From: Euglena gracilis
Taxonomy: Eukaryota
Length of the DNA: 64,000 nucleotides
Assembly (NCBI GenBank): GCA_039621445.1
Contig: CP154954.1
Span: 46,541,847 to 46,605,846, forward strand
Direction: 5' to 3'
In this document: positions 1-51,203 of the stretch, piece after piece
Position numbering within the stretch: position 1 is the first letter of the stretch
Layout: the number at the start of each line of letters is the position of its first letter
Program-made: the position numbers and the translations under genes
Notes under the pieces: model-generated
Told to the model about the DNA's origin: nothing
Databases searched by the model: none
The model's input: the letters and a program-made list of their open reading frames with translations, nothing else

Positions 1-382
1 TACAGAGTTGGGCCAGTGTCACATACTCAGGGATTCCCACAAATTCGTGCTGATGACCTTGATTCTGGGTCGTGATCATGACTAATTGAGCCACCAAAAA
101 AGCGTCCGTTTTTTCACATTTCCTGAGCAAATCAGCAATATACTTTCAATGCAATGCAATTTTTTTTGCAGCAGTTTGTGGCATTTTGCAGGGTTTCAGA
201 ATATCACAAAAAAAAACATTGTCTGAAAGATGGTGCAGGTGCCTGGGTCAAGCTGTTGGCCATTTTCGACTAAATTGTCAAAAACTTTGGGCCATTGGAT
301 CAATTTTGTCTGTGTTGGCCATGATGGTCAATCATTGTGGTCAATCATTACTGGCCCAATGTGGCCAATTTTGGAATATGCA

Positions 383-732
383 TTAACCCCCCCACTTACT
401 AACCCCCCCCTCGGGCCCACCAACTAAACCGGGACTTATAACCCCCCCCCCCCTTCGAGGAAGAAAAATGAAAACCGCCGGGGACGATTTTTTCGGCCGC
501 AAACCACCCAAAAACTGATTTTTTGGCAATTTTTTGAGATCAACCATCATCAAAAAATGCCATTTTTGACCAAATTTGAAAAAAAAATTGCCAATTTGGG
601 AGGGTTTCGGGGTCATTTTGGGGGTTCGGATTTTCACCAACAATTCCGGGACTTATAAACCCCCCCTTCGGCCGACCAACCAAACCAGATCCTACTAACC
701 GCGGGGGTTTATAAGTGGGGGGGGGGGGGTTA
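383..732. mobile_element. MITE with C/G-run terminal inverted repeats, TA-flanked
   Basis: taacccccccactta... versus ...taagtggggggggggggtta. Confidence 0.55.
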
Positions 733-1432
733 CCGAGGGGGGGGAATTGAAGCTGGATAAAATTAGAACCGACAAAATTGGAAGCCGAAAAAATTGGTGC
801 CAAACCTGAAACGGCCCGGAAAAAATTGGCAGGTTTCGTTGGCAAGATGACTGGAAAGGGGGTGATTTTGAAAATTTTGAGGCAGGATTTTCAAAAAGAA
901 CACAAAATCCAACGCTTGGTTGATTGACATTGTCGTGAAACTCAACCTGTGTTACACACGTGTACGTGTGGGGGGGGAGATGGGATTTTTATAAACCAAA
1001 TTTGGGCAAGCTGGCCCACCTACCCCCTGGGGGGGGGGGCAGGGGGGGGCCCACTGTTGGGGGGGGGGTCAATATTGGAATCCACAAAAAATTGGGACTT
1101 AACATAAACGCACAAATCTTTGCAATATTTTGGCAAAAACAGGTCGATTTCGAGGGGAAGAAGGGGGTGATTTCTGGCATTCTTACACCATTGCCCATCT
1201 CCCCCCAGAGCGTGAAAAAAATGTGTTTTGAGATTTTAATTTTTGACCCTGCTTCATCCCCAGACCGGCCATAAGCCATCCCTGAGGGAAAGGGCGGTCC
1301 TTGACGAAAAAAAGCATCTCGTCCCTTGTGGCCTTCCCCGCCGGGGGAAGGGAAGGGGGGCCAGTGAATGCTGAAGCACAAGCCTGATCGATGCCCATAT
1401 TTTGTGCGTGCTTCACACTGAGAAAATGAAAC

Positions 1433-15394
<13,962 letters not shown>

Positions 15395-15400
15395 TGCTGT

Positions 15401-15420
15401 CTGCAAAAAAAAAACAACGA
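15401..15420 (-). promoter_or_regulatory. Polypyrimidine tract and AG, probable spliced-leader trans-splice acceptor of psaD
   Basis: gttgtttttttttttgcag ends 6 nt upstream of the ATG. Confidence 0.65.
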
Positions 15421-15480
15421 AAAAGTCGGGTGTGGAATTTGTACATCGAAATTCCTAATTAGCCGCACACACACACAAAG

Positions 15481-15505
15481 CTTTCTGAGTGTCTATTTTT
15501 TTTCG
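15481..15505 (+). other. Genomic copy of the euglenid spliced-leader exon (relic SL, not followed by a GT donor)
   Basis: CTTTCTGAGTGTCTATTTTTTTTCG matches the 3' 25 nt of the Euglena-type SL; it is followed by CATAAT rather than GT. Confidence 0.9.
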
Positions 15506-15590
15506 CATAATACATGGCGGACAATTGAAAGCCCCTGGTGGGGTCAGGTATCCAAGTCAAGAGTTCAATTGCCATTGAGAGTCACTTACA

Positions 15591-15725
15591 AGTCCTGCTG
15601 GTGCAGGCAGAAGACGTCCTGAAGTCCTGCTGGTGCAGGCAGAAGCAGCCTTGAAGTCCTGCTGGTGCAGGCAGAGGAACTCCTGGTGGTGCAGCAGAAG
15701 AAGTCCTGCTGGTGCAGGCAGGAGC
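15591..15725 (+). repeat. Short tandem repeat (agtcctgctggtgcaggcag)
   Basis: Four to five near-identical units. Confidence 0.75.
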
Positions 15726-15803
15726 GGGTACTGGTGTACTGCTGCAGCTGGACATGCTGTCGTCATTGGCGTACTGGGCTGCTCAGCCCTGGTGGCACCT
15801 TAT

Positions 15804-15918
15804 GGGCCTGCAAAGGCCCCCTCATCTGGGCCTGCAAAGGCCCCCTCATCTGGGCCTGCAAAGGCCCCCTCATCTGGGCCTTCAAAGGCCCCCTCATCTG
15901 GGCCTGCAAAGGCCCCCC
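15804..15918 (+). repeat. 24-bp tandem repeat x5 with hairpin core GGGCCT-GCAA-AGGCCC
   Basis: Units start at 15804, 15828, 15852, 15876 and 15900; the same core recurs about six times in 16672-16842. Confidence 0.9.
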
Positions 15919-15930
15919 ATCTGCCAACCA

Positions 15931-16443
15931 TTAAACCCCCCCCCCCAAATATAAGAAACCCGTTTCTTATATTTGGGTGTCGGCCGATCGGCCCAAAGGG
16001 TTTCTTATATTTGGGGGTTTCTTAAATTTGGGTGTCGAAGGCCGGCCCCAAGGGTTTCTTATAAATGGAACTTTTTCTTCCTTCGGTTCCTTCATATAAA
16101 TAATTACATGTGACCACTGTGTGTAGGATTCAAACAGTGGGGAAGGGGGTCGTGACACGGACAGGTGTTTCCAAATAGCAGTTGCTTCTGAACTCTTGCT
16201 TTGCAAAGAAGAAATAGACTAGATTGGCTTCATCTTTGTGTTGATCACGCCTTGAGATTTGCTGTGACCCATGGTGAAAATGAGGGGTTTCTTATAATTG
16301 GATTGACGTCCAACAGCCCAGGGGTTTCTTATATTTGGGGGTTTCTTATATTTGGGTGTCGGCTGAAAATCAGCCAAAGGGTTTCTTATATTTGGGGGTT
16401 TCTTATAGCGAGGGGTTTCTTATATTTGGGGGGGGGGGTTTAA
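15931..16443. mobile_element. TTAA-flanked MITE
   Basis: ttaaacccccccccccaaatataagaaaccc / gggtttcttatatttgggggggggggtttaa; subterminal gggtttcttatatttggg repeats. Confidence 0.8.
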
Positions 16444-17092
16444 GTGCCACTTTCAGCTCCAGTGTCTTCTTTTCTGTGTTTTGCATTGCATCCCAAACTT
16501 CTGATCAATCGAAATGGCAAACCCGCTATGACACATTTTGCAGCAGTTTTGACTTGACATTGAAAAACATTCTGCCACCCCAACCCCTCAGTGACACATT
16601 TTGCAGCAGTTTTGACTTGACATTGAAAAACATTTTGCCACCCCAACCCCTCAATAACACTGTTTTACCCCAGTGGCCTGCAAAGGCCCTGGGCCTGCAA
16701 AGGCCCACCCCCAACACCATTTTGCTCCAGTGGCCTGCAAAGGCCCTGGGCCTGCAAAGGCCCCCCTGTGACACCTTTTTGTCATGTTTGCAGCATTTTG
16801 TCCCAGTGGCCTACAAAGGCCATGGGCCTGCAAAGGCCCCCCCGGACACCATTTTTGCACTCAGCCTGAAAAGCCCCCGACAAACTGGCAAACCACGCTC
16901 ACCCACATTTTGGCCTGCAACAGTGGCCCCCCAGCCAGACAGCACATCCACTTTTCGGTCTGCAACAGTGGCCCCCCAGCTAGGCAGTTCTGCCAGATTC
17001 TGCTCTCCTGCTCAGCAAAATGAACTTGACAACCCCCAGGTTCCCTCTCCGCTGACCGGAAAAAACCCCCAACGTCGGCCAAACAAATAAAA

Positions 17093-20000
17093 GTGCTTGT
17101 GCCTTCTACTCCTGCAAAAGACGGCACACAGCCTACCCTGGCAGCATCGGGGGGAGCAGGCCGAGGTCGGTCTTTACTGACCTGCGGGGACATTGAAAGT
17201 AACCCCGGACCTCCTACAGACCCACCATTTGTGTCGGTTGAGGATATTGACATGGCACCAGCATCACAAATCTCCATCCCTCCTAATTCACCACGCCCGC
17301 AGAGCCCCCATCGGTGTCGGGTGAGGACGTTGACATGGCGCCAGCATCACAAAACTCCATCCCCCCGACCGCACCACCACCACCCGCAGTGCCACCATTG
17401 GAAAGGGGATCTTGGTTCCCAAATCTGCCGGGTCCGTTGTTCTTTGGCCAACAAGGCCTCCCCTCAATGTGCTCCACGGTCATCATGGCGAACCCAATTG
17501 GCACACAAGGACCAGGACCCTTCCCCTCGTCAGATGTTGGGGCCATGTGGATGCAAGCAAATCAGGCGACGCCTTTCCTGAACTTCTCCAACCCCCCTTT
17601 GGGTGCCAGCTCTTCATCCTCAGTGGCAACAACCGCAGCAGCATCGTCACCAGCCCCAGCTAGACCCCCACCAAGCCCCATTGGTCAAAATCACATTGCT
17701 GGGGTTACGCCATTCTCTGCTCCATGCCCACCATCCCTTCATCCCACTTTTGAGGAAATTTCTTTTTGATGATCGAGGGACCCTTGTATACCTGCCACGT
17801 GGAGCCCTCCTCAATGTCAATCAAACCTACCTGCAACTGATGAAGCATTTCAACATGGAACCTGGCTGGGAAACCCTGCACGCCTTGTGGGCCTTCCCCA
17901 AAGCGGTGCTCTGTCCTTTGCAGCGTGGCGGGCGATCAAACTGGGCGATGGTGGGGAGAAAAATTGCAGAACGAGCTCGCCTGTATCTCACCCGTCCTGT
18001 GTTTGATTCTTGGTTGGACTCCAGTCTCCCACAAAAGCCGCAAGGCAGACAGACAAGGCAAAAAACAGCACTGGCGGCCAAGGCAACTGAAGAACGGTTC
18101 CTCTCCCGCATTGAAAGCCTTGTTGGCCACGGGGCCATTTCAAAAGCCTGCCGAGAGCTCACCTCTGAAGGGGTTCAGAACAGCAATGACCCAAAAGTGA
18201 TTCAAAGGCTACGTGACCTTCACCCACCAGAGCCTCCACCGCGCATCCCAGTGTCCGACTCTTCCCAAACGATCACCTTTCCTTCAGACCCGGAAAGCAC
18301 AAAAGAGCGATTGCAAAATCTGCGCAAAGCTATATTCGGGTTCCCAAAGGAGTCCGCACCGGGCCCTTCTGGCCTGAGACCCGACCACCTCAAGGCCATG
18401 GTTGGAGACTACCCAGGGGCTTGTGGAGATGACCTCCTCGAAGTGCTTGATACCTTCATCTGTCGGGCAATTACAAAGGGTGTTCACCCTGGCATGGCCC
18501 CAATTCTTTCCTCCGCCAGGTTGACGCCGCTGCGAAAACAAAACAAACAAACAGCAATGGAAGAGGATGCTTTTGGAAACCTTGTGGAGCACACGGTGTG
18601 TGATGAAGACACTCGCCACTCGCAGCAGGTGAAACCCTCCGCCGTTTGGTTGGCAAATGTCTCATGCGCCATCCAACAGTGGTAAACGCTTTGAAAGAAC
18701 TGAGTCCCCCACAATGTGGCGTTGGTGTGCCGAATGCTTGTCCACTGATCGCAATGGGAATCCAACAAATGGTGGACACTCTGCACTCGGACAGAGACAA
18801 TCGCTGGGGGCTGCTTCAAGTGGATTTCAGGAATGCCTTCAATTCTTTGTCACGGGAAAAAATCCTGCAATCCATCCGTAGACGATGCCCAGAAGCGTGC
18901 CCTTGGCTGGATTCATGCTACGCCCAACACAGCAAGCTGTATTGTGGAAACCATTGTCTGCCTTCCGAAAGGGGAGCTCAGCAAGGTGACCCATGTGGAC
19001 CAGCCGCTTTCGCCTGGGGAGTACAAGACCTTTGTGAGGGCCTCTCACCCTTGGTCGAATGGCAGGGCTGGTATTTGGATGACGCCCATCTGCTGGGATC
19101 GCCAGCCCAGCTGCACAATGCCCTTGCCTTTCTGATTCGCGAGGCAGCCGCGCTTGGGTTGGCCGTGAACCCTGCAAAGTGTCGATTGTGGGGACCAGCG
19201 TTCACATCAACAGAAGGTGTCCCTTGCATTCCCCCTGGCACGCCACAGGACAGCCCCTTACATCAAATACCACTGACCGCCTTTGTTGCTGGTTCTGGTT
19301 TGAAAGTTTTGGGGGTCCCTGTCCACCACCCCCAAGATGACCGCTTCTGTGAAGAAGTTTGGAATAAGCGCATTGAAGACATCCGACGTTCTTGCACAGT
19401 ACTTCAGCACCTACCTCAATCGCATGTGCAATTCACCTTGCTTCGTTTTTGTTTATCCGCTTGCAAAGTGAATGACCTCTTGCGCGCCTGCAAAATCGCC
19501 TCTGCAACAGCGGCATGCAAGACATTGTCGGGAATTATTCGGGAAACATTCAGTAGCATGGTCGGCTCCCCTTGCACCCCAGAAGAATGGTTGCAAGTTT
19601 CCCTGGCCATCAGATGCGGTGGACTGGGAATCTCCGATCCACTATTTCAACGTGCGCCTGCCAGATTGTCTCAAGTGGTGGACTTCTGTCGAAGAGCTCC
19701 CTCTGTCTTGGGCCTGCCCGCTGCCATGGACATCCTTCCCAAAGACGTTGACGATTGTTTACGGACAGCCCTCAATGAACTTGGTCATTTGGCCCCACTG
19801 CCACAATGGGCCAGTGACAAAAACTTGATCTCTCAGGCACAGTCTCCACACAATTCTCAACGGTGGTGGAATCAGCAGAGCATGCTTGCCCGCCAGAAAA
19901 CACTTCGGGACACATTGAATGGACCTGATGCTGTACGCTTTGCAAGCCAATGCCAACCTCACGCTATGGCATGGGCCGCCTTGACACCATCTCAAGGACT

Positions 20001-20691
20001 CCGCACCCTGTTACCCACGGCTGAATTCCGCTGCACACTTCGTTGGTCCCTCGGAATGACTCTCACACCAATGGAATCCGATCCCAACCTCTGTCCCAAG
20101 TGCTTTGGACAATCTGATTTTCTCGGACACCACCTCGTTTGCTGCAAATCAAACTTCATTACCCGGCGGCACGGGGCTGTCCAAGATTTTCTGACAACCA
20201 CAACACAGAAGGCAGGATTTACAGCCCATAAAGAACAACGAGCTGATGACCGTTCCCGGCCTGGGGACATCTTCATTCCTCGCTTGGACAGTGATGGACC
20301 CGTTGCAGTGGATGTGACAATCCGCCACACCCTTGCGCAAAGTCATCCGTTGCGAAGTGCAGAGAGCCTTTCACAATGGCAAACACGCCAGGAGGCTGAA
20401 AAGCATGCCAAATATGATGCAACATGCCAACGACTGGGCTGGCGGTTGATGCCATTCGTCATGGACTGCTATGGGGGCATGGGACAAGAAGCGCGCTCCT
20501 TGATGGCCACCCTCCTCAAGGCCCTTCTGGGGCAGCGGGAAGGGTGGCAACGGCGTGCCGCAGAAGCAGACATTTGGCAAGGCCTGTCCTTCACACTAAC
20601 CAGAGAAGTCAGCAGACAGCTCGTTTGGAGCTTGTATTCTTCCAAAGATGAGATCACCCTGTCTTCCGCCCACTCACCATATTCTGTCTGA
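17093..20691 (+). CDS. Non-LTR RT-RLE polyprotein (about three frameshifts) with N-terminal 2A-like peptide
   Basis: SAPGPSGLRPDHL, (R)PLAAGETLRRLVGK, VDFRNAFNSLSR, GAQQGDPCGP, WYLDD (19072-19083), LKVLGVPV, GGLGI, CPKC..HHLVCC, RRH, RPGD, VDVTI, EAEKHAKY; frameshifts near 17300, 17760 and 18615. Confidence 0.9.
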
Positions 20692-20709
20692 AGGCCTTTG
20701 AGCCCAAAC

Positions 20710-21306
20710 TGTCGGCTGCCGCTGGCGGCGGCAGCCAAAAATTTCCCAAAAATTCCCAGAAAATTCCCAGTAGGAACCTCCAAAGCAAGTCAACCGCCAC
20801 ACGAGTGGAATTGGAACCGCAGCAAATTTCAAGAAGAATTTGAGAATTCGATTTGAGAATCAGAAAAGAAGAAAAGTCAATTGGAGACTTGAAGAGCAAA
20901 AAGATCAATTCAAATAACATCAGGAAGCCAAGGCATTCATTTCCACATTCTTTGTCCCACTCAACACCTGAACTCAAAGGTACTTGCCCACCTTCTCAAG
21001 TCCAAGGTTTGTTGTGCTCTGCTGTGTGCTTCCAAGTAGGAGGGTTGGTTTGTCTTTGCTCACCTTTTGATCCAAATGTTTGAAAAGGCAAAACAGTGGA
21101 GGCTAAAAACGATCCTACGCGGGGAGACAGGGGGACCTGGGTCGGGGGGGCACACCTCACCCCCATTACCACCTGTGGATTTATTTGAAAACGGGGCCCA
21201 ACTTGCCAAAGGCCCTGGCCTGAGCCCACCAGGGCCAGAAAAAGGAAATTGTGGCCCCAGCGAAAGCAGCCCCCCGGGCGAGCAGGGTCCTCCAAACCCC
21301 CCAACA
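20710..21306 (+). repeat. 5' LTR
   Basis: Near-identical to 28192-28791. Confidence 0.92.
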
Positions 21307-21957
21307 TGGTACGCAGAGGTGGCTTCACTGACTCTGTCAGTGAAGAATTTTTAGATTCCGTTGATGACAAAGAAATCAAAGAATACTGTGACCAATTCAA
21401 ATTGTTGGGAATTCAATTCAGTGATACCCAAACAGAGGAACAAAGAAAAAGGGAGGCTGAATATCTGGCGTCTCAGAGGGAGTTTAGGAAACTCAGATGT
21501 GAAGCAGCCATTGGACATTCTCATGGCCCTGACTCATCTTCTCCATGTCAATCTTGTAAACCGTCAGGGGTAAGCCCAACAAGTTCACTGTCAGGAGAAC
21601 CTGAAGTTAAACAAGAAAGTTTTGACCCTTGTCCAAATGCTTTGCAAATGAGAGGTGTGCGGTGCGAATCTGAATCCGGACAGCTGAGTGTCAAATCAGA
21701 CAGTGTGCAAACTTCAGAGGTCACAAAACCTGAAACTTTTTATGACCCCTGGGATGAGTGGTGGCAAAAAGTTGAGGCAGGTATCACAGAATTGTTTTCA
21801 AACACTTTTCCTCTGAACGAGAGACTGACGAAACTGGAGGAAGTGCCCAGCCAAAGTGAGTCCAGCCACTTGGAGGGACGGACGGCTGAAATTGAAACCC
21901 GTCTGAGAAATTTGGCAGATGGTTTTCATGACCTTTTCACATGAACTTGCAGTGAAA

Positions 21958-28191: not shown

Positions 28192-28791
28192 TGTCGGCTG
28201 CCGCTGGCGGCGGCAGCCAAAAATTTCCCAAAAATTCCCAGAAAATTCCCAGTAGGAACCTCCAAAGCAAGTCAACCGCCACGCGAGTGGAATTGGAACC
28301 GCAGCAAATTTCAAGAAGAATTTGAGAATTCGATTTGAGAATCAGAAAAGAAGAAAAGTCAATTGGAGACTTGAAGAGCAAAAAGATCAATTCAAATAAC
28401 ATCAGGAAGCCAAGGCATTCATTTCCACATTCTTTGTCCCACTCAACACCTAAACTCAAAGGTACTTGCCCACCTTCTCAAGTCCAAGGTTTGTTGTGCT
28501 CTGCTGTGTGCTTCCAAGTAGGAGGGTTGGTTTGTCTTTGCTCACCTTTTGATCCAAATGTTTGAAAAGGCAAAACAGTGGAGGCTAAAAACGATCCTAC
28601 GCGGGGAGACAGGGGGACCTGGGTCGAGGGGGCACACCTCACCCCCATTACCACCTGTGTATTTATTTGAAAACGGGGCCCAACTTGCCAAAGGCCCTGG
28701 CCTGAGCCCACCAGGGCCGGAAAAATGAAATCGTGGCCCCAGCGAAAGCAGCCCCCCCCCGGGCGAGCAGGGTCCTCCAAACCCCCCAACA
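28192..28791 (+). repeat. 3' LTR
   Basis: Preceded by the polypurine tract and followed by TSD AAAC. Confidence 0.92.
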
Positions 28792-29113: not shown

Positions 29114-32100
29114 GACCATTCGGGCTCCGCACTGCGAGATGGTGAGGTCCTGCTTTCCTTGCCGGCTGTTCTGTTCTGGTGTGTTTGTGCGTGCGCGGGG
29201 GGTGCTTCTTACTGCTTTTTGTTGCCGGAGTTGGCTGATTCCTATTTCTGCCCTTCGACCTCAAGGAGAAAGAACTTTACTTCTACGAACTCAAGTGGAC
29301 GAAAATTCTCGGAACTTCAACTTCCTGACGGAAGAATTCAACTCTCGGAGATCAACAACGGGACTTCCATGAAAAATGAATTTCAAAGAGCTGAAGCTGG
29401 GGAAGGTGGAGACACAGCAGCAGCTGCAGAAGCTGGAGGGGCGGAAGCGACACGTCCGTCCGTGGCCATCGCAACCCCCCCACCACCCAGTACTTCAAAG
29501 ATTTCAAAATTCAAGGTTTCAGGCTCCCCCCCTAAAAATGATGGGCATGGACATGGACAACTGTGGTCAGGAAGAGAAGACAGAGGGGGACCACCATCAC
29601 AGGTCCAACAGACTCCACCCCTTTTTCTCAGTTCCTCCCCTTTCAGGGGAGAAAGCAAAGGCTATGGCAGCCTCAATCCAAAGGATTCAAATCAAAACCA
29701 AGGCTATGGCAGCCATCATTGGACAGGGCCTGGGGCCCAGAATCATGGCTATGGAAGCCATCATCCAAGAGGCAGTGGGCCCAGGAGCAAAGCTATGGCA
29801 GCCTGTGTCCAAACCTGGAAAGCTCCCACGGGGGAAAGGGTATGTCCAACTTACCCCACAGCTCTCTCAAACACAAAACCCTCAGGAGCTGCACATCCAA
29901 GCAACCAACCCTACAGGGGAAGGCCAATGGAGGCCATTATATGCAAGAGGCCAATGGGGGCCAGGGGAAGCATCAAAATATCAAGGCCAATGGAGGCCAT
30001 TATATGCAAAAGGCCAATGGAGGCCAGGAGAAGCATCAAGACTTCAAGGCCAATGGAGGCCATTTCAATCAAAATCAAGTGGCCATTGGAGGCCAGTGCA
30101 TTCAAGATCACATCAGCCCTTGGGGGGGAGGCCCAAGATTGGCTACACCAGGGCCCCCCCAGAAGGTAATCAGCCCACACCCCCCAGCTATATATGTACC
30201 TCCCCATTGCAGACACAGACTTTCCCCAATCTTTCAAAATCAGGGGGAAAGCCTGTCTTTGGACAGCCCTATGGCAGGGCCAGAGGTGACCCCAGTGATG
30301 GGGCAGCCAGGCAGGACCCCAGTGATGGGGCAGCCAGGTGTGACCCCAGTGATGGGGCAGCCAGGGGGAAGGACCCCAGTGATGGGGCCTGTGGAATCCC
30401 CAGACACATTACACCCAGGGGTACCCCCTTACAAGGCCCTGCAGGCCAGCATTCCCCATTGGGTCAAGGCAGGAGCCAGCACAGAGGTATTAAACCTGAT
30501 AAGGGAAGGGGTCAGGGCAGATCTTCCCCTCCCCCCTCAGATGTCCTTAAAAGTTCCCTTCAAAACTCCCCAAGAAATAATGACTGCCCAAAAAATTCTG
30601 AGGGAATACGAATGTGCAGGGGCAACCAGGCAAATCCCCCCAGAGGAAGCAAAACATTTTGTCCCTTATTTTATCATTTCCAAACAGGAAGGGGGAAAGA
30701 CAAAGGAAAGACTAATTTCAGATTGTCGACAGTTAAATCAACATTTCACCCCCCAGAAGTTCAGACTGGAACACATGGGAAACATATTCCCATATCTCAG
30801 AAAGGGTTGGTTCTGTGGAAAAATAGATCTGAAAGATGCTTATTTCCATTTAAAGCTGCACAGCAGCCTGGAAAAGCATGTTTGCATGCAGGTGGGGGGG
30901 GGAAACGTGGCAATTTCAAGCTGCATGCTTTGGGTTAAGCAGCCTGCCACAAAAGTTTATGACTCTCATGAGAGTCTGGGAAAGGAAATGGAGGAAGGAA
31001 GGAAAGGTAGTTTTCATCTACCTGGACGACATTTTGCTGTTAGCCCCCAGCAAAAAGACAGCAGCCCATCATTTGGCAGAAATGAAAAAAGATCTTTTGC
31101 TGGCAGGTTTCAGAATAAACCTCCCCAAATCATGTCTGGAACCAACACAGGAAATAAAGCATTTGGGCCAGTGGATCAATTTGAAAAAAGGCCAACTGGA
31201 AATTCCACAGGAAAAATTAAAATCCCTAAGAAAGGAATTAGGAAAGGTGCTGACAGCACAAAAAATGAGCTGCAGAAAACTCAGCTCTATTGTAGGGCAA
31301 GTCAGAAGCTATTTAGTTTCAATGCCTTTTCTCAGAATTCTGACAGATCAACTTTGCAAAATGGTGGATTTGCACACAAAGTGGGGTTGGGACCACACCC
31401 TAACCATTCCCCAGGGGGTCAAAGATCAAATTGTGGAGTTAAAGGCATTTTTGCAGCCAGGTGTGGGCAGAGCCTTTCAATCCCAGGCCTCTCAAGAACT
31501 GTTCTCAGACAGCAGCACCTGGCAATGGGGGGGGCTGGACAAAAATTCTGGTCAAAAGGTCCAAGATTTCTGGAGGGACCTGCATGTCCTTCACATCAAT
31601 CAAAAAGAATTGATGTCTGCAGTGGAAACTGTAAAGGCTTTGGCAAAACCAAAACAAACCATTGTTCTTCATGTGGACAGCCAGGTGGCAGTAAGTTATT
31701 TAACAAAATGGGGAGGCAAAAAGCCATACCTAAATTCCATCCTAAAACCCCTTCTGTACCATTGCCAAGAAAAGCAAATCAATTTGCAGGTGGTTTGGGT
31801 TCCCACAAAGGAACAATTGGCAGACTCCCTGACCAGGGAGCAAAAAGATCCAGGGGATTACACCCTGAACATGAACATTTTTCACCAGATTCTGAAATTT
31901 TTCAAGCACCACATCACCCCAGAGGTGGACATGTTTTGCACACCCAGCAACAAAAAATTCCCCAAGTTCATTTGTCGATACCCCCACCAAGGGGCCTTGC
32001 TGGTGGATGCCTTGAAGGCAGATTTAAGGGGTCTCCCCCCAGTTTATGCCAACCCTCCCTGGAGCATCATCCCCCAGTGGGTTCAGAGATTGATGCTAAA

Positions 32101-33684
32101 CCCAGACCTGAATTGTCTGTTGATTGTACCCCACTGGGCTTCGACATCATGGTGGCGCCAATTAATGTCAATCAGGCAGCCAGGCAGCAAGGTTTTGCTG
32201 GTACCCCCCAGTGGGGTCTGTTCACCAACTGCTGGGGGGAGGAGATGCCCCCCCCAAGGTGGAATTTGGCCTGCTTGATTGTGTCAGGCAAATATTACAA
32301 TCCCAGGAAGTTTCGATGTCCAGTATCGACACTTACATAAAAAATCTGGGGAATGTCAAAAGATATGATTCAGCATTCAAGGCTTTGATGGGCCAATTGT
32401 TGCACAAAGGGGTGCCCCTGCAGGACTGCACAGTCCACAGGATGGCTGAGGCCATCCTTGACCTGGCTGCCCACAGCCTCAACACTGCAAGAAATGCATA
32501 TGCAGCAGTTTTATTACTCCCAGGGTTTGGGTCATTGAGGTTTTCCCCTCTTTTGTCTCCATTGAAGAGGAAATGGAATTCCAATGTCTGCAAGTATGCC
32601 CATTTTTGGGACCCCACTGATTTCTTGGAGAACATCATCAGGAAATCCAAACCCCTCTCAGACCTATCTGTGAAAGAGCTCAGAAACAGGCTCATCATCT
32701 GTTGGAGGCTGTTGGCCCTCCACAGGGGGGTTGATTTAGCCAGGACACAGCGAAAAATCAGTTTCGTAGGAGAAAAAATTTTCATTTTATTGCAAAGGAA
32801 AGGATGGCAGTGCCCAAGGTGGGAGGAGATTTTGGTTTTGCCACACACCCCCCTCATCAGCCCCTGGCATTTATTGAAAGAGTATGTGGGAAGGACAGCC
32901 CACATGGTTGGGCACAAAAATCATTTGTTGTGGTCTTTGGATGGCAAAAGACCTTTGACTTCAGAAAGGGTGAATTCCCTGACCAAAGAAATTCTGCAGG
33001 AGGGGGGGGTGGACACCACCCACTGGAAACCCCACAGCACCAGAGGGGCTGGGGTTTTATGGTGGAAAAATGCTGGTTTGCAAGTGGAAGAAGTCCAGCA
33101 GCTGGGTCAGTGGAAAAATTTTGGGGCCTTCCAAGCTCATTATTTGAGGCTGGGTGTCGTTTCAAAAATTCAAACAATTATGGCCCAAAGGGGGGTGCAC
33201 AGTACCTCACCATCTCGCAGTGCGGAGCCCGAATGGTCTCGGACTCCCACGACAGAGGAAGGGGGAGGAAGGGACCAAGAGGGCGAAGCACAAGAAGATG
33301 GTGAGCCCAACCCTCCCACCCAAAAAATCAGCAGAAAAAGAAAGACATCCCAACCAGAAAGGGGACCCCCAACCAAGCAACCCCAGCCACCCACCCAGAA
33401 ACACAGAAAGAGACCACCATCCCCATCAGGGGGGGGGGGGCCCACCAAGCGACCATGGGTGAGGGGGGGGGGGGGCGGAGCCACGGCGGTTCAGCTTCGC
33501 CAAGGTGTCGGACGCGGCCTCATCATCGCCAACTCCGGCAACAAAGGCGCAGTAAGAAGCACCCCCCGCGCACGCACAAACACACCAGAACAGAACAGCC
33601 GGCAAGGAAAGCAGGACCTCACCATCTTCTTGTGCTTCGCCCTCTTGGTCACTTCCTCCCCCTTCCTCTGTCGTGGGCGTCCGA
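29114..33684 (+). mobile_element. DIRS1-like tyrosine-recombinase retrotransposon
   Basis: Left ITR 29114-~29230; ICR 33204-33305 complementary to both termini; right ITR plus extension ~33535-33684; RT, RNase H, MT and YR domains. Confidence 0.93.
29563..32340 (+). CDS. DIRS RT / RNase H / N6-adenine methyltransferase-like ORF (two compensating homopolymer frameshifts)
   Basis: RLISDCRQLN, KIDLKDAYFHL, FGLSSLP, YLDD (31019-31030), FSDSS, HINQKEL, VDSQ, ADSLTR, VDMFC, YANPPW (NPPW at 32051-32062); shifts at poly-G ~30894-30902 and poly-C ~32204-32209. Confidence 0.88.
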   Translation: MVRKRRQRGTTITGPTDSTPFSQFLPFQGRKQRLWQPQSKGFKSKPRLWQPSLDRAWGPESWLWKPSSKRQWAQEQSYGSLCPNLESSHGGKGMSNLPHSSLKHKTLRSCTSKQPTLQGKANGGHYMQEANGGQGKHQNIKANGGHYMQKANGGQEKHQDFKANGGHFNQNQVAIGGQCIQDHISPWGGGPRLATPGPPQKVISPHPPAIYVPPHCRHRLSPIFQNQGESLSLDSPMAGPEVTPVMGQPGRTPVMGQPGVTPVMGQPGGRTPVMGPVESPDTLHPGVPPYKALQASIPHWVKAGASTEVLNLIREGVRADLPLPPQMSLKVPFKTPQEIMTAQKILREYECAGATRQIPPEEAKHFVPYFIISKQEGGKTKERLISDCRQLNQHFTPQKFRLEHMGNIFPYLRKGWFCGKIDLKDAYFHLKLHSSLEKHVCMQVGGGNVAISSCMLWVKQPATKVYDSHESLGKEMEEGRKGSFHLPGRHFAVSPQQKDSSPSFGRNEKRSFAGRFQNKPPQIMSGTNTGNKAFGPVDQFEKRPTGNSTGKIKIPKKGIRKGADSTKNELQKTQLYCRASQKLFSFNAFSQNSDRSTLQNGGFAHKVGLGPHPNHSPGGQRSNCGVKGIFAARCGQSLSIPGLSRTVLRQQHLAMGGAGQKFWSKGPRFLEGPACPSHQSKRIDVCSGNCKGFGKTKTNHCSSCGQPGGSKLFNKMGRQKAIPKFHPKTPSVPLPRKANQFAGGLGSHKGTIGRLPDQGAKRSRGLHPEHEHFSPDSEIFQAPHHPRGGHVLHTQQQKIPQVHLSIPPPRGLAGGCLEGRFKGSPPSLCQPSLEHHPPVGSEIDAKPRPELSVDCTPLGFDIMVAPINVNQAARQQGFAGTPQWGLFTNCWGEEMPPPRWNLACLIVSGKYYNPRKFRCPVSTLT

Positions 33685-33697
33685 ACCGCGACCTGTG
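32211..33697 (+). CDS. Tyrosine recombinase
   Basis: LALHRGVD (Arg I), KG, HSTRGAG (HxxR), LGQW, FQAHY (catalytic Tyr). Confidence 0.9.
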
Positions 33698-33828
33698 NNN
33701 NNNNNNNNNNACCCGTTAACCCGTGGACTGGCTGGCCTTTTGAGACTGAGGAGGAGCGTCAACAGTATGAATATGCTGTGACGATCCAACGACAAATCGC
33801 ACGTCGCCCCCCTGTTTCCGCTGGCCAG

Positions 33829-39011: not shown

Positions 39012-42000
39012 GCCCAAATCTGTAAAAAAACAGACCTCATAAGAGGTCGTGCACAGCCTTCCGTAAAGAAAAGAGCTTTAGACCTTTTTTGCGGTAAAGG
39101 CTCGGTTGGGGATTGCCTGAGAGAGCAGGGGTTTAAGGTTGTGTCAGTGGACATAAACCCCAGATTTAACCCAACCCACTGTGCAAATATTTTGGAGTGG
39201 AGATATTGGAGGTACCCCCCCGGATATTTTCAGATCATCGCTGCGGGGGTGCCCTGTACAGAATATAGCTTGGCCAAAACATTGGGAGTCAGAAATTTGG
39301 AGGGGGCAGATCGGCTGGTCAAAAAAACTTTGGAGATTGTCGAATATTTCAAACCAAAGTTGTGGTGGATTGAAAATCCCCGTCATGGACTTTTGCGGAA
39401 AAGACCCTGTGTTCAAAATCTGACTTTTGTCGATGTTGAATATTGTCAGTTTTCAGATTGGGGATATCAAAAGCCCACCCGAATCTGGGGGAGCGAAAAT
39501 CTGAGCAAGCTACAAAACAAACTTTGTGATGGCCAGACCTGCCCGAATTTGATTCCTGGGGGGAGGAGTCACCGAGAAAAGTTGGGAGGATATGGAATGA
39601 CAGTTGGTACTCAGAAAAAATGGAGGATGCCCAAACAACTGGTGGAGTATTTGTTAACCGTGTTGGAACGAAAAAGCGGATATCGTAGGGAGGATTATGC
39701 TGTTAGGAAAGTTTGTATGGAGGAAATTGAGAAGGAATTTCGGGTTAAGGCGGAACGGGATTGTTTTGCAACCAGCCAAAATGCCAGGTGTGAAAAGTTT
39801 TACGGGGAGGATGATGATGCCATGAAAAAGGATTGGGGGGCGGAGGAAACGTTGTGGATGAACCCCCCCTGGACTTTGTGGCCTGAGGTGGCTGAAAAAT
39901 TGCAAAATTCCAATTGTCGGGGAATTTGTATTTGCCCAGACTGGAATAGGAGGTGGGTGAAAAATCTGGTGGCTATGGCTGTCAAAAAGATTTATTTTCC
40001 CAAGGGGACAAAGTTGTTTGAGGCTGATGGGAGGATTTTGAGGGGTACCCGTTGGGGGGTGTGGGCCTTGTTGATCGATAGAAGGCAACCCTCCCAGGGG
40101 GGGGCAGCCCCAGGGAAGAAAAAATTGGTGCGGCTGAAAAAAAGAATGTTGAGGGGGACGAAAACTCGGGGAGGAGCAAAGAAACTCGGGGAGGACAGAC
40201 AACTACTGGTGAAAACCCAGATTAGGTTGGCAAATGGGGAGGAAAAAACGGCCAGAATTTTGATTGACACGGGGGCGGAGGCAAACCTCATTCGACAAGG
40301 GTTGATAGGGGACCACCTAATGTATCCTGCTAAGGACCCGTTAAGGTTTGAAACTGCCAATGGGCAAACTTTGGCGGGGGGGAGCAGATGTGCAAGGGTG
40401 AAAATGATCCTACAACAAAATTGGAATGAGGAAAGGGAAATTGAGTGTGTGGAATATGAGGTTGAATTTTATGAGGCAAACATCAAAGTTGATGCAATTC
40501 TTTCTTATCCATGGTTGGCAGAAGCAAAACTGGGAATTTTTCCACACCACAAGGCGTTGGTGAAAGACAGCCCCGACCTGATTTTTTTGCGGGGTGTTGA
40601 AAGACGGAGGGGTCCGCAAAAATTCAGGGATGACACAAATTTTTCAGTGGACAATGTGACTGTGGCGGACGGGTCTGAGTTTCGGTTGCAAAAACTTGGT
40701 CTTTGTTTGCCATTGGAGGGGTTGGACCAGGAATTACAATTTTTGAGTGATGAGGACCTAGGGGAGGTTGCCACAAATTTGGAGGGAAGTGACCCCCCAG
40801 TGCAAGTTATCAACCGAATGATAATTGCAAGGGAGGGGGAGGACAAAAAAGAGGAGGAACGGGTAGTCAAGTTGAGGGAACAAGTTTTGGAAGATTACAG
40901 GGGGACGGTATTTCGGTCATCGCCATTTCCAGACCCCCCCGAAAGAGGACAATATGGTTATGCATACATACCGTTGAAGGAGGGGGCAAAGCCAACCAGA
41001 CAGAAGCCTTTTTTCATGCACGGTGAGCGGAAAGAGGCACTTGAAAAAATCACACAAGACTGGCTCGACAAAAAATACATTGAGCCAGCCACAGCCAAAA
41101 ATTCAGAATGGCTGTCCCAGACTTTTCCAGTTCCAAAAAAATCCAACGATTTTCCTTGGAGGGGGGTGGTGGACCTCAGGGGCCCAAACAGCCAAACAAG
41201 GCGATGCAACTACCCCCTACCCAAAATTGAAGACATTTTGGTCAAACATGGTGCAAACCAAATGTTTTCGATCATCGATTTGAAGCAAGCTTTTCACCAA
41301 CAACCTTTACACCCAGAAAGTCGACCCATAACGTGTTGTTTTACCCCCAAAGGCATTTTTCAGTGGAGGGTGAACGTAATGGGTTTGACAAATGCCCCCC
41401 AGCAATTTCAGCAAATGATCGATGACCGTTTGACACCAGTAAGGGATATCGCCACAGGGTACATAGACGACATACTGGTGGGGACAACGGTCGGGGAAGG
41501 GGAGGATCTGGTGGGGGCACATGAAAAAGATTTGAGGAGGGTGTTGGAGGTGCTGAAAACAGAACTTTTGGTGGCTGATGAATTCAAAGCCAAACTTTTT
41601 GTGGAGGAGGTTGAATTTTGTGGACAAATTTTAGGAAACGGGACTAGGAGGCCTGCACCGGGTAAGTTACGAGCGATCGAAAAGTGGGAGGTTCCAAAAA
41701 CAATTACGGCTTTGAGAGCCTTTTTGGGATTCACAAATTATTACAATGCATACATTCACATGTATGCGGAAGTAGCTGCCCGATTGCAAGACAAATTGAA
41801 AGTCCCCAGGGAGGTGGGAAAGAAAGGAAGTCGAAAACCTGTGGAATTTGATGGGGAGGATTTAAAAGCTTTTGAGGAGCTGAAAAAAAGGTTGTGTTCG
41901 GGCCTAATGTTGCAACGGGTAGACCCAGATAAACCCTTTGTGCTAAGGGTTGATGCCAGTGGGTACGCCGTGGGGGCAACGTTAGAGCAAATGAAGGAGG

Positions 42001-44273
42001 GGGGAGGAAGACCCACAGCCCAGGATGTGATTGAGAAAAAAACTGTGCCAGTGGCTTTTATGTCTCGAAAATTGACCGAGGGGCAAAGAAAATGGACCCC
42101 CAGGGAGTTGGAGACGTATGCCATAATTTTGGCACTACAAAAATGGGAGAGTTGGATTGGATTGCAACCCGTTTTGGTTTTAACCGACCACCAAAGTTTG
42201 GAGTCTTGGACAAGGGAGGTCCTAGACACCCCCAGTGGTCCGGTTGGGAGGAGGGCGAGATGGCATCAAATTTTCTCCAAGTATGATTTGACGGTGGGAT
42301 ATATCCCGGGTAAAGAAAATACCATAGCCGATATCCTTAGTCGGTGGGCATACCCAGCTTCACAGGCCCTAAGGGACATAAGTAAGCACGGGTCAGCCGA
42401 AGACAAGGATGAAATGGAAAATTTTATCCGGGAGGAAAAAGAAGAGGAAAAACAGTGTTTGGAGATAAGAATCAAAAACCAGCCCAATTTACGTAATGCC
42501 TGGATACGGGGGGTGACAACCCGTAGTGGCAAAAACGTAACACCCGAGGAGGAAAAAGGAGAGTGCACAAGGAGGGGAACCGAGGGTGGGGTAGACCCAG
42601 GAGGAAAAGACACCCCTGTGGACACCCACTCACAAGGGCCCAGGAAAGAAAAGAAACGAGTTCATTTTTGGGATGAGAAAGTGGGGGGGGAGACGACCCC
42701 TGTCCCGGAGACGGCTGAAAGTTCGAGGGGGGACACTCGTATGGAAGTGGGGGACGCCCTGCCAAGTACGACCCCTAAGGATATTAAGCCCGTATGGGAG
42801 CGTGATTGGGGGGAAGCATATTCCCAATGCCCCACATGGAAAGAAAAATGGGTAGCTACCAAAGGCGATTCAATTTGGCCAAAGGGTTTCAAAGTGCTAA
42901 ATGGCCAATTGTTTTTCGAGGAAAAGTTGTGTGTGCCTGAAAGTTTTCAACACTTGGTGATTCAAGAAATTCACGAGTTTTTGGGGCACGTTGGCCCTGA
43001 AAAAGTTTGGAAACACATGGCAATCCGTTTTGTTTGGGCTGATGAAAAGGCTGCAAAACAACTCAACCAAAGTTGCAGCAAAAATTGTTCCACATGCCAA
43101 GCGAGTGTGAGGGGGGAGAGTTTGAAAGGACCGATCGAGTCCACACCCATACCCCCTGCACTAATGACAAGTGTTGCCATCGATTTGTTTCGAATGCCAA
43201 GGGTTTTACACGATGGGGGGGAGTACGACACCCTAGCCCTTTGTGTGGATAGGCATTCGGGTTGGATTGTGGGGGTTGCATGCAAGGACAAGGGATTAAC
43301 CGGTGCCAAGTTGGCTAAGGAAATGGTGAAAAATCAGTGGAGGCCTTTTGGGGTTCCCTCGGTCATCTCAAGTGACCAAGGGAGCCATTTCACAAGCACT
43401 TGGTGGAAAAACATGTGTGCACTTTTGGGGATTAGGCAAGCGTATTCCCAAGCATACCACCACCAAGCAAACGGGAGGGTTGAGAGAGCCGGACAACAGG
43501 TAATGGAGGTGTTGAGAAAATTGTACGTGGAGGAAAAAATTAATTGGGTTGAAGCTTTACCCCAAGTTTTGGACCGAATTCACGACGTAAAGGGGGAAAG
43601 CGGGTTCAGCCCATATGAAATTGTGACTGGAAGGGAAAGACCATTGGCAGGGGTACCCTACCAACCACCCAAGGAATGTGAGGATTCGGTGGAGTTTTTC
43701 CGAAGGATGCGAGACATTGATGGGAGGGTGGCTAGGATACTCAACAAAAAGCACGAGGAGGAGGTGGCAAGGATAAATAAGGGGAGGAAAGAAATGGAAC
43801 CCCTAAAGGTGGGGACGACGGTTTGGTATAGGAGACCCGAGGGGTCGGGTGAGAAGCTTGACTCTAGGTGGGTGGGACCTGGGGTCGTGAAGGGTAGAGA
43901 AGGGGAACGGAGTTATGTAATTGAGATGAAATCTGGGGTGGAGACGAAAGCTCATAGGAGTTTTTTGAAGAAGTATCGGGAACCCCAAGTTGAAGGTAAG
44001 GGGGTGCCTCTTTTTTATTATAAACGGACCGAAAAAGAAGAAGAGGCATTACCTGATGAGTGGGAGGTGGAAAAAATTCTAAGGCACCGAAAAGGAAAAG
44101 ATGGAAAATGGGAATTTTTGACCAAGTGGGTCGGATATGAGGACGGGGAGGAGACCTGGGAACCGTCTGGGAATTTTATTCACAGATTCAGTGAAGAGTT
44201 TGTGAAATATTGTCGTGAGAAAAAAGTGAAAGTGGACGTAATGTCCGAACTAAAAATTGACGGTGGGCCGTAG
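39012..44273 (+). CDS. Pol polyprotein: C5-MTase - amino-MTase - protease - RT - RNase H - integrase - chromodomain
   Basis: Frame is open from 39012; DLFCGKG, GVPC, ENP; DCFA..NPPW; LIDTGA; YIDD; VDASG..RELE; SDQGSHF..GRVER; WEVEKIL..KWVGY..TWEP. Confidence 0.95.
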   Translation, partial: AQICKKTDLIRGRAQPSVKKRALDLFCGKGSVGDCLREQGFKVVSVDINPRFNPTHCANILEWRYWRYPPGYFQIIAAGVPCTEYSLAKTLGVRNLEGADRLVKKTLEIVEYFKPKLWWIENPRHGLLRKRPCVQNLTFVDVEYCQFSDWGYQKPTRIWGSENLSKLQNKLCDGQTCPNLIPGGRSHREKLGGYGMTVGTQKKWRMPKQLVEYLLTVLERKSGYRREDYAVRKVCMEEIEKEFRVKAERDCFATSQNARCEKFYGEDDDAMKKDWGAEETLWMNPPWTLWPEVAEKLQNSNCRGICICPDWNRRWVKNLVAMAVKKIYFPKGTKLFEADGRILRGTRWGVWALLIDRRQPSQGGAAPGKKKLVRLKKRMLRGTKTRGGAKKLGEDRQLLVKTQIRLANGEEKTARILIDTGAEANLIRQGLIGDHLMYPAKDPLRFETANGQTLAGGSRCARVKMILQQNWNEEREIECVEYEVEFYEANIKVDAILSYPWLAEAKLGIFPHHKALVKDSPDLIFLRGVERRRGPQKFRDDTNFSVDNVTVADGSEFRLQKLGLCLPLEGLDQELQFLSDEDLGEVATNLEGSDPPVQVINRMIIAREGEDKKEEERVVKLREQVLEDYRGTVFRSSPFPDPPERGQYGYAYIPLKEGAKPTRQKPFFMHGERKEALEKITQDWLDKKYIEPATAKNSEWLSQTFPVPKKSNDFPWRGVVDLRGPNSQTRRCNYPLPKIEDILVKHGANQMFSIIDLKQAFHQQPLHPESRPITCCFTPKGIFQWRVNVMGLTNAPQQFQQMIDDRLTPVRDIATGYIDDILVGTTVGEGEDLVGAHEKDLRRVLEVLKTELLVADEFKAKLFVEEVEFCGQILGNGTRRPAPGKLRAIEKWEVPKTITALRAFLGFTNYYNAYIHMYAEVAARLQDKLKVPREVGKKGSRKPVEFDGEDLKAFEELKKRLCSGLMLQRVDPDKPFVLRVDASGYAVGATLEQMKEGGGRPTAQDVIEKKTVPVAFMSRKLTEGQRKWTPRELETYAIILALQKWESWIGLQPVLVLTDHQSLESWTREVLDTPSGPVGRRARWHQIFSKYDLTVGYIPGKENTIADILSRWAYPASQALRDISKHGSAEDKDEMENFIREEKEEEKQCLEIRIKNQPNLRNAWIRGVTTRSGKNVTPEEEKGECTRRGTEGGVDPGGKDTPVDTHSQGPRKEKKRVHFWDEKVGGETTPVPETAESSRGDTRMEVGDALPSTTPKDIKPVWERDWGEAYSQCPTWKEKWVATKGDSIWPKGFKVLNGQLFFEEKLCVPESFQHLVIQEIHEFLGHVGPEKVWKHMAIRFVWADEKAAKQLNQSCSKNCSTCQASVRGESLKGPIESTPIPPALMTSVAIDLFRMPRVLHDGGEYDTLALCVDRHSGWIVGVACKDKGLTGAKLAKEMVKNQWRPFGVPSVISSDQGSHFTSTWWKNMCALLGIRQAYSQAYHHQANGRVERAGQQVMEVLRKLYVEEKINWVEALPQVLDRIHDVKGESGFSPYEIVTGRERPLAGVPYQPPKECEDSVEFFRRMRDIDGRVARILNKKHEEEVARINKGRKEMEPLKVGTTVWYRRPEGSGEKLDSRWVGPGVVKGREGERSYVIEMKSGVETKAHRSFLKKYREPQVEGKGVPLFYYKRTEKEEEALPDEWEVEKILRHRKGKDGKWEFLTKWVGYEDGEETWEPSGNFIHRFSEEFVKYCREKKVKVDVMSELKIDGGP

Positions 44274-46779: not shown

Positions 46780-47065
46780 TGGTAGCAGAATAGGTCAAAG
46801 ATCCTACAGAAAGAAAGGCTACCAGGTAATACACTTGGTAGCAGATTTAGGCAACGAACCTACACAGACGTTCCACACAGAGAAACTCTGTGGTTGACTG
46901 GTGGTGAGGATCGTACTGAGCCGTGAAACACGGTGAAAGTACTGTTCCTGGCCCCTAGCCAACCTTTAAGCAAGGATACAGGTCTCAGAAGGCTCTGTTC
47001 GGTAATCGCCGATACAACCTTTCTGGTCCCTGTTTCTCTGCTTATTTGTGTGAATTTTTGGGTTT

Positions 47066-51158: not shown

Positions 51159-51203
51159 GGGAGCCCGAGGTCCGAGGGCACGGACCTCTGGGCTGATGAA
51201 CAG

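Follow-up and report, generated by a model that had tools for sequence, protein, structure and literature searches.

Does a virus-type 2A (StopGo) peptide serve a non-LTR (LTR, long terminal repeat) retrotransposon whose nuclease is of the restriction-like type? The question is raised by a 64,000-nucleotide stretch of Euglena gracilis DNA (GenBank assembly GCA_039621445.1, contig CP154954.1, positions 46,541,847 to 46,605,846 of the forward strand), called the window below and used for all coordinates. The peptide GRGRSLLTCGDIESNPGP is encoded at 17159-17212 (+), just upstream of a long interspersed nuclear element (LINE) that encodes a reverse transcriptase (RT) and a restriction-like endonuclease (RLE). 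The original prediction held that the peptide has the full 2A consensus, that it sits at the N-terminus of the RT-RLE reading frame, and that ribosomal skipping separates a leader or ORF1 product from the RT protein. It is quite probable that this family conserves a genuine class-A 2A where its R2-like RT-nuclease protein begins, with skipping predicted from the sequence. The window copy lacks a start codon and an upstream module, its frame is broken three times and its 3' end is cut; the motif at this locus is therefore a well-preserved fossil in a defective copy of a very high-copy family.

The peptide lies within the stop-to-stop frame 17030-17581. A six-frame scan of the window finds three NPGP strings, and only the one at 17159-17212 belongs to a full D[VI]E.NPGP motif. 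The C-terminal part, GDIESNPGP (17186-17212), conforms to the class-A pattern D(V/I)ExNPG/P. The tract of about ten residues upstream is of the LLxxxGD type, and the SLLTCGD of the window is identical in Providence virus 2A1. The consensus claimed for this site is thus borne out by the exact translation and by its being the sole full motif in six frames. Because the neighbouring DNA is full of repeats and geneless open frames, the match might be taken as a chance occurrence in a low-complexity Pro/Gly-rich region. The probability of this is close to nil, and the reading is already refuted: the expected number of D[VI]E.NPGP motifs is 0.00024 per window from six-frame residue frequencies (0 in 300 shuffles), and the same motif position is kept in relatives.

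The likeness to viral 2As extends beyond the core. The window peptide and the tetravirus peptides, Providence virus 2A1 and Thosea asigna T2A, have the extended signature GRG-x-LLTCGD(V/I)E-x-NPGP in common, which upholds the resemblance to T2A noted originally; 14 of 18 positions match Providence virus 2A1 when counted by eye. A catalogue of about 2,200 2A peptides, of which many come from dinoflagellates or metagenomes, lists the exact LLTCGDIESNPGP of the window once, from a metagenomic record (PMC12338488 and its supplement), and the 2A of one relative of the element, P0032, equals the last 17 residues of Providence virus 2A1 in the same supplement. The term "reverse transcriptase" is absent from the text of that paper and from the three supplementary files searched. 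An integrated RNA-virus fragment (a tetravirus-like or picorna-like endogenous viral element) lying beside the LINE by accident would also leave a peptide resembling the 2As of Providence virus and Thosea asigna virus. Such an origin is highly improbable: Pfam finds no viral domains flanking the motif, the motif is in frame with the RT in relatives and other copies, and a single element may carry two or three GRG-type peptides, set between modules that are not viral. Viral 2As split capsid or replicase parts of RNA-virus polyproteins, whereas the context here is a retrotransposon without a viral domain.

The enzyme downstream of the motif resembles R2. A phmmer search with the single RT-RLE open reading frame (ORF) gave no match in the PDB; R2 was reached by the family profile alone, with 9nl3_A (E = 3e-41), R2Tg (9dou_A, 4.9e-41) and R2Bm (8gh6_A, 2.1e-22). 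The alignments to 9nl3_A and 9dou_A span the RT, the CCHC knuckle (CxxC..H..C) and the PD-(D/E)xK nuclease (RH, PD, DVTV, K..KY). The order of RT, linker, knuckle and restriction-like nuclease is that of R2, and the N-terminal domain, which has no Pfam match, is aligned by the profile to the R2 region upstream of the RT. In the PDB ranking R2 comes first and L1 ORF2p next, the human L1 ORF2p being matched in its RT part only. Another profile, extended to the part N-terminal of the RT, matched R2 again and L1 ORF2p in the RT part only; no chain of an apurinic/apyrimidinic endonuclease (APE) was matched at E <=0.01. Neither the window ORFs nor 17 relatives gave a Pfam match to an exo-endo-phosphatase (APE) domain. 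The R2-profile match through the nuclease and the lack of a detectable APE make the element, by sequence and by comparison with PDB R2 proteins only, an RLE-type, R2-like non-LTR retrotransposon without APE, as had been proposed. The residues without variation in a 26-sequence alignment (YLDD, CxxC...H...C, RH, E, the D in AVDVT and the K in EKHAKY) are all retained in the window copy; the RT residues D158 and D159 are invariant across the family alignment. The window copy has no Pfam match to an N-terminal zinc finger or Myb domain.

R2 is specific to ribosomal DNA. The window contains no Rfam family, rRNA included, and the element is not inserted into a 28S rRNA gene. Since there is no rRNA gene in the window and the family, unlike R2, is very abundant (tens of thousands of contig pieces), the element is not R2 in the strict sense.

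Relatives of the RT-RLE ORF show where the motif belongs. A word-indexed search gave 72 proteins, and an exhaustive search 9694 cluster representatives at E <=0.001 (582 at <=1e-30). Almost all are metagenome or metatranscriptome proteins, the named few being from Symbiodinium and Durusdinium (22-28% identity), together with a single firefly protein. Searching with the N-terminal domain brought up the closest long relatives. P0073 (1849 aa) and P0074 (1736 aa), at 54% identity over the RT-RLE part, each carry three strict 2As in a single ORF; P0226 (2000 aa, P0074 cluster) repeats the pattern; P0075, whose 5' end is cut, has two strict 2As and a degenerate one; and P0032 (34% identity) has RGRGSLLTCGDVESNPGP in frame with the RT. 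A strict 2A stands at the same position relative to the RT as in the window in eight relatives (P0032, P0073, P0074, P0075, P0089, P0091, P0092 and P0096), and the RT-proximal 2A of the relatives aligns with the window motif. The conservation on which the original prediction was to be judged is thus present. After the RT-proximal 2A comes a variable Pro-rich linker and then the box TPF..PCP..P.FEEI....R.TL.H.PRGA, the entry to the N-terminal domain. The window linker (17287-17766), queried alone in search of longer proteins, has no database relatives.

The relatives also reveal what the 2As separate. Around them the modules follow the order SLBP-like RNA-binding leader, Cys/His-rich stretch, Dam-like module and RT-nuclease. 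SLBP_RNA_bind (Pfam PF15247, cut-off 27 bits) scores 50.6 bits in P0073, where PDB 4l8r_C is also matched (E = 4e-6), and 20 bits in P0074. The Dam-like domain (PF05869, cut-off 28.1 bits) precedes the RT-proximal 2A in P0073, P0074, P0089, P0091 and P0092 at 22.9-31.5 bits; P0089 and P0092 exceed the cut-off, and the other three fall slightly short of it. A GRG-type 2A lies upstream of the RT in seven non-redundant proteins, and five of these also have a Dam-like module before the 2A. DIRS elements carry a Dam-like domain. PF05869 is found both in the module of the relatives and in a DIRS-like and two Ty3/gypsy elements of the window; the difference from DIRS is that the module here is predicted to be freed by 2As from an RLE LINE polyprotein, and that the window LINE copy is without it. 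The proposed separation of a leader or ORF1 from the RT is therefore supported by the upstream modules of the relatives, the SLBP-type domain included, and not by the window copy, which has neither an in-frame ATG nor a module.

The placement of the 2A in the RT-RLE frame likewise fails in the window copy and holds elsewhere. Three single-base frame breaks, at about 17293, 17763 and 18615, put the 2A out of one frame with the RT (Table 1); tblastn with relatives places the frame changes at about 17293, 17760-17774 and 18616. All three sites are at or beside short single-base runs, and the breaks may be real mutations or assembly errors. Contigs of two DNA runs (X1 and X3), a metatranscriptome (X19, RNA on record) and a presumed RNA run (X15, RNA by guess) were aligned on 15500-21500, the two DNA runs giving 20362 and 17605 contig pieces; their depth and cover are not taken as an estimate of copy number or expression. 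An extra C behind 17293 occurs in 5 contigs of X1 (all the depth there) and 10 of X3 (10050 of 19032 depth), and in none of X19 or X15. The T-run at 17763 is one base shorter in 14 contigs of X1 (68396 of 96750) and 18 of X3 (49745 of 80884), again in none of X19 or X15. Behind 18615, an extra C is found in 7 contigs of X1 (33085 of 152571) and 3 of X3 (26451 of 94036), as well as in the single X19 contig and the single X15 contig at the site. In copies with the extra C behind 17293, the repeat that follows the 2A is 84 nt long (28 residues) and in frame. Because a compensating 1-nt indel exists at each break in other copies, the family ORF is unbroken from the 2A to the nuclease. This agrees with the relatives, which have 2A and RT in one open frame, so that the continuity called for by the original prediction is found for all three breaks. 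A continuous ORF in which the downstream protein would start at the final Pro is seen in the relatives and other copies and not in the window copy. The contigs labelled as RNA are at most a weak hint of transcription.

Upstream of the motif the window copy is less easily read. From the upstream stops to the 2A there is no in-frame ATG; an ATG at 17020 opens a different frame, which stops at 17053. The leader 17030-17158 is weakly similar to P0074's tail ahead of the RT-proximal 2A, and a minority of other copies, both RNA-labelled contigs among them, have +1 indels at 17065/17067. The repeat block at 16440-17029 is of high copy, has variable repeat-skipping joints in other copies and shows no homology to the upstream modules of the relatives; it may belong to the element, as a 5' region built like monomers, or be a satellite unrelated to it. 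A tblastn search (E <=5) with the relatives' upstream modules against window 12000-17300 recovered the 2A itself only. At the other end, the stop codon of the RT-nuclease ORF is at 20689-20691 and the LINE 3' region ends 19 nt past it at 20710, both sides of which show diverging contigs.

The evidence leans slightly towards a window copy that is 5'-truncated or rearranged. It is also a real possibility, though a doubtful one, that in this lineage the 2A, instead of being the last of several, lies near the true N-terminus behind a short leader, with 16440-17029 as the monomer-like 5' untranslated region of an element that is not 5'-truncated. Odon et al. describe such a layout for single-ORF APE-type LINEs. 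Among other copies the upstream repeats are joined in variable ways, and an X15 contig of 585 nt bridges 16734-17293, though with a difference of only 3 letters it may come from this very locus. The summed contig depth of 105k at 16907-17107 is similar to the 137k over the 2A, a comparison that does not discriminate because the whole 6-kb stretch is of high copy. Against a short leader stand the lack of an in-frame ATG in the window, the two TGA codons just upstream, and the module that precedes the 2A in all five 2A-bearing clade proteins that reach at least 480 aa upstream.

Some smaller features of the 5' region may be recorded here. Frame 0 of 17040-17090 (+) reads VPSPLTGKNPQRRP, which resembles the (S/P)PLTGRG...NPGP lead-in of the upstream 2As in P0074, P0075 and P0089. 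Speculatively, this region could be what is left of a further 2A after an internal deletion; the +1 indels at 17065/17067 would join its frame to the 2A frame. Further upstream, 15590-16440 (+) consists of short tandem repeats (32-nt x4, 24-nt x5 and 17/20-nt GGTTTCTTATATTTGGGGGT units) that are of very high copy in the runs. The CCATTTTG-like strings in the upstream repeats were considered as spliced-leader relics and rejected, as the dinoflagellate spliced leader has no match with <=3 mismatches.

The distribution of the motif was followed in the proteins and in trees. Of the fetched proteins, 62 reach at least 335 aa upstream of where the RT-ORF starts; a strict 2A is present in 9 of them, a class-A-like motif in 11 and the motif W..G.R(I/V)GEAx(N/H)PGP in 3. 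Some such motif is found in 10 of the 29 with at least 480 aa upstream. FastTree was run on 126 rows, 96 of them too short upstream to be scored for 2A, and IQ-TREE, as a quick tree, on 39 rows, with 2A state changes counted among scored rows; P0032 and P0075 were excluded from both trees because their RT-RLE part is cut. IQ-TREE places the window with P0073 and P0074 in an 8-row clade (SH-aLRT 100), nested in an 18-row clade (97) to which all rows of the tree with a GRG-type 2A belong (P0073, P0074, P0089, P0091, P0092 and P0096). The 2A state changes five times on the tree, and P0188, P0204 and P0218 are isolated carriers elsewhere. The seven non-redundant proteins of the clade have 15 complete motifs, 14 of them with GRG in front; of the four motifs outside the clade none has it. 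This points to one 2A cassette duplicated within the clade and to separate origins elsewhere.

Two side observations concern other members of the superfamily. The RLE-LINE relatives P0204 and P0188 have an MLLE (PABP C-terminal) domain at 46.8 and 18.5 bits, respectively, and P0204 also has a strict 2A near its N-terminus. A motif of the form W..G(R/I)R(I/V)GEAx(N/H)PGP lies in frame upstream of the RT in P0037, P0042, P0052, L068:3858 and L075:865, carriers from a Symbiodinium-containing clade of the RLE superfamily; it may be a further recoding or processing signal. This RIGEA-type motif departs from the D(V/I)ExNPGP consensus, and its assignment to the class B 2As was rejected because the class B peptides in the supplement of PMC12338488 read W.RD.TEEGIEP(H/N)PGP. 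Among 80 metagenome loci it was found in two, in frame and open through to the RT.

Several facts weigh against a family-conserved, working 2A. The window copy as assembled has the 2A out of frame with the RT, no ATG leads into the 2A, and no upstream module was found within 5 kb upstream or elsewhere in the LINE of the window. The contigs aligned to restore the frame are short, have a likeness of at least 85% and may include the window's own sample, and the relatives are metagenome or metatranscriptome contigs for which chimeric assembly cannot be formally excluded. Nor is the 2A general in the superfamily: any NPGP-type motif is found in 14 of the 62 fetched relatives with at least 335 aa upstream, P0016 and P0086 are without a 2A inside the 18-row clade, and P0086 and P0017 start with Met and a C2H2-like zinc finger, again without a 2A. 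Finally, a class-A 2A occurs in none of the 80 metagenome loci (24-42% identity; 59 with >1000 nt upstream), and the motif is therefore restricted to the clade.

The mechanism of StopGo is described, in the parts of PMC12846837, PMC3326317 and PMC3894237 that deal with it, as a block of the final Gly-Pro peptide bond by the nascent 2A in the exit tunnel, upon which the upstream chain is released and translation resumes at Pro. In an intact element, the nascent ...LLTCGD(I/V)ExNPG in the ribosome exit tunnel would accordingly form no bond to the next Pro; the product translated upstream would be released, and the ribosome would continue into an RT-nuclease protein starting with Pro, which in the window would begin PPTDPPF.... 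In the closest full-length relatives, one long ORF would, through two or three 2As, yield four products in the manner of a picornavirus polyprotein: an SLBP-type RNA-binding leader (in an ORF1-like role), a Cys-rich module, the Dam-like module and the RT-nuclease. Both the skipping activity of the window 2A and these roles of the upstream modules are inferred from sequence. An active window 2A is likely by analogy, given its near-identity to Providence virus 2A1 (...GGRGSLLTCGDVESNPGP), for which a supplementary table reports an activity of 0.99 (PMC12338488).

The peptide might instead act mainly as a translational attenuator that keeps the RT-nuclease low, skipping being a side outcome. According to the text of a 2026 preprint (10.64898/2026.06.17.732966), most tested retrotransposon 2A-like peptides lowered protein abundance, among them 59% of the ORF2p cases, and no upstream protein is evident in the window's lineage. 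Attenuation as the main function is nevertheless unlikely: the 2As of the relatives lie exactly between folded modules (SLBP-like, Dam-like and RT), which is the layout of a separator, and the peptide closely matches Providence virus 2A1 with its listed activity of 0.99. Release of separate proteins remains the preferred function.

How far does this depart from known systems? "Ancient" RLE LINEs (R2, NeSL, R4, HERO, CRE) are the textbook elements with one multifunctional protein and no ORF1. R2 in particular is presented in the relevant sections of PMC3708506 and PMC3894237 as one multifunctional protein from a single ORF without a 2A, and the non-LTR elements with 2As described there are of the APE type only (L1Tc/ingi, Rex1, Crack, L2 and CR1 clades). 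The role proposed for those 2As, freeing a leader or ORF1-like part from the enzyme, is the same as that suggested here (PMC3708506, in the section concerned). The APE-type elements have an N-terminal APE and one 2A. In the window family no N-terminal APE lies downstream of the 2A, the nuclease is a C-terminal CCHC plus PD-(D/E)xK unit, and up to three 2As stand between distinct modules of the relatives.

A full-text literature search for RLE terms together with 2A terms found both only in the 2013 papers, and a search for SLBP with non-LTR retrotransposons found nothing relevant. One preprint (10.64898/2026.06.17.732966) reports in its text 2A-like peptides in ORF2p-like proteins of 16 species, mostly APE-bearing, including the dual-endonuclease Dualen/RandI elements of Haematococcus and one Symbiodinium ORF2p; "RLE" and "restriction-like" are absent from that text. 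Another (10.64898/2026.09.24.754024) describes 2As predicted along the ORFs of 580 contigs that contain an RT, of which about 79% are non-LTR-like, and its text has no mention of endonuclease, RLE, APE, SLBP or methyltransferase. RLE-only elements and SLBP-like or Dam-like modules thus appear in the text of neither preprint, though their figures and supplements may show such architectures. The remark in the original prediction that 2As are unfamiliar in RLE elements stands for published work, which is APE-only, and has to be seen beside the many 2A-bearing LINE-like RTs reported in the text of these preprints, which describes no RLE-only element.

The known host range of 2As among retroelements is widened by this family beyond APE-type LINEs, and its relatives supply natural two-2A and three-2A polyproteins. 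StopGo release of an RNA-binding protein and further modules from one ORF would be a route to ORF1-like functions without a second cistron. A bolder proposal combines two statements: that this is an R2-like RLE LINE clade with picornavirus-style expression, in which tandem GRG-type 2As split one ORF into SLBP, zinc-binding, DIRS-like Dam and RT-nuclease parts, and that the cassette has a common origin with the 2As of insect tetraviruses. Taken as a whole it is tentative and rather improbable. If true, the common origin of GRG-LLTCGD(V/I)ExNPGP would imply horizontal exchange between retroelements and RNA viruses, and the question of 2A cassette exchange between the two is raised in any case. 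R2-type proteins are now engineered for gene insertion, and natural multi-protein R2-like systems may be of practical interest.

Table 1. Features of the LINE copy and its borders (window coordinates)
Feature	Position	Strand	Frame	Remarks
Short tandem repeats (63-, 67- and 45-nt units)	16440..17029	+		families D5, D8, D10; directly upstream
Open leader, 43 codons	17030..17158	+	2A frame	closed by TGA at 17021-17023 and 17027-17029
Open segment 1	17030-17293		2	no internal stops
2A/StopGo peptide GRGRSLLTCGDIESNPGP	17159..17212	+		aligns with RT-proximal 2A of relatives
Predicted skip point	between G (17207-17209) and P (17210-17212)	+
Tandemly duplicated stretch of 28 residues directly following the 2A	17217..17377	+		repeat D9, spacing 83 nt; holds the break at 17293
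Open segment 2	17293-17763		1	no internal stops
Pro-rich lineage-specific linker ending in the TPF..PCP..P.FEEI box	17293..17763	+	1	T-run break at 17763
Open segment 3	17765-18615		2	no internal stops
Conserved N-terminal domain of RT protein	17765..18615	+	2	tblastn 41-51% identity to P0004, P0005, P0073, P0074, P0075
Open segment 4	18616-20691		1	no internal stops
Reverse transcriptase domain	18700..19191	+		Pfam RVT_1 44.9 bits (cut-off 29.6); YLDD at 19072-19083
CCHC zinc knuckle CPKC...H...C	20092..20145	+		invariant columns C496, C499, H509, C513; aligns to R2 knuckle
Restriction-like PD-(D/E)xK nuclease (RRH, KEQ, RPGD, AVDVT, EKHAKY)	20167..20403	+		aligned by profile to R2 chains, R2Tg among them
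Border with another repeat	20710..21306	+		98.3% identical to 28192-28791

The rest of the window is rich in other transposons. The 600-nt repeat at 20710-21306, after the LINE stop, has its second copy (28192-28791) upstream of a DIRS-like element at 29542-33696 (+), which has a long ORF with an RT-like YLDD, a Dam-like tblastn match at 31820-32146 and a tyrosine-recombinase match (Phage_integrase) of 23.7 bits, below the cut-off of 27.1; a gap of 13 Ns (33697-33709) follows it directly. A Ty3/gypsy chromovirus frame of 1753 aa (RT, RNase H, integrase and chromodomain) occupies 39012-44270 (+), with a Dam-like domain of 39.5 bits and a weak C5 DNA-methylase match of 20 bits (cut-off 22) at its N-terminus. 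A second chromovirus pol ORF (1698 aa) at 51159-56252 (+) has a weak Dam-like stretch at 52665-52844 and is preceded at 47054-51093 (+) by a gag-like ORF with a CCHC knuckle. The Dam-like matches at 31.8, 39.7 and 52.7 kb thus belong to transposons other than the LINE. A 1542-aa open frame at 57234-61859 (+) has no Pfam match, and the first 14 kb (1-14000) contain long low-complexity G- and C-runs that create many spurious Pro/Gly-rich open frames on both strands.

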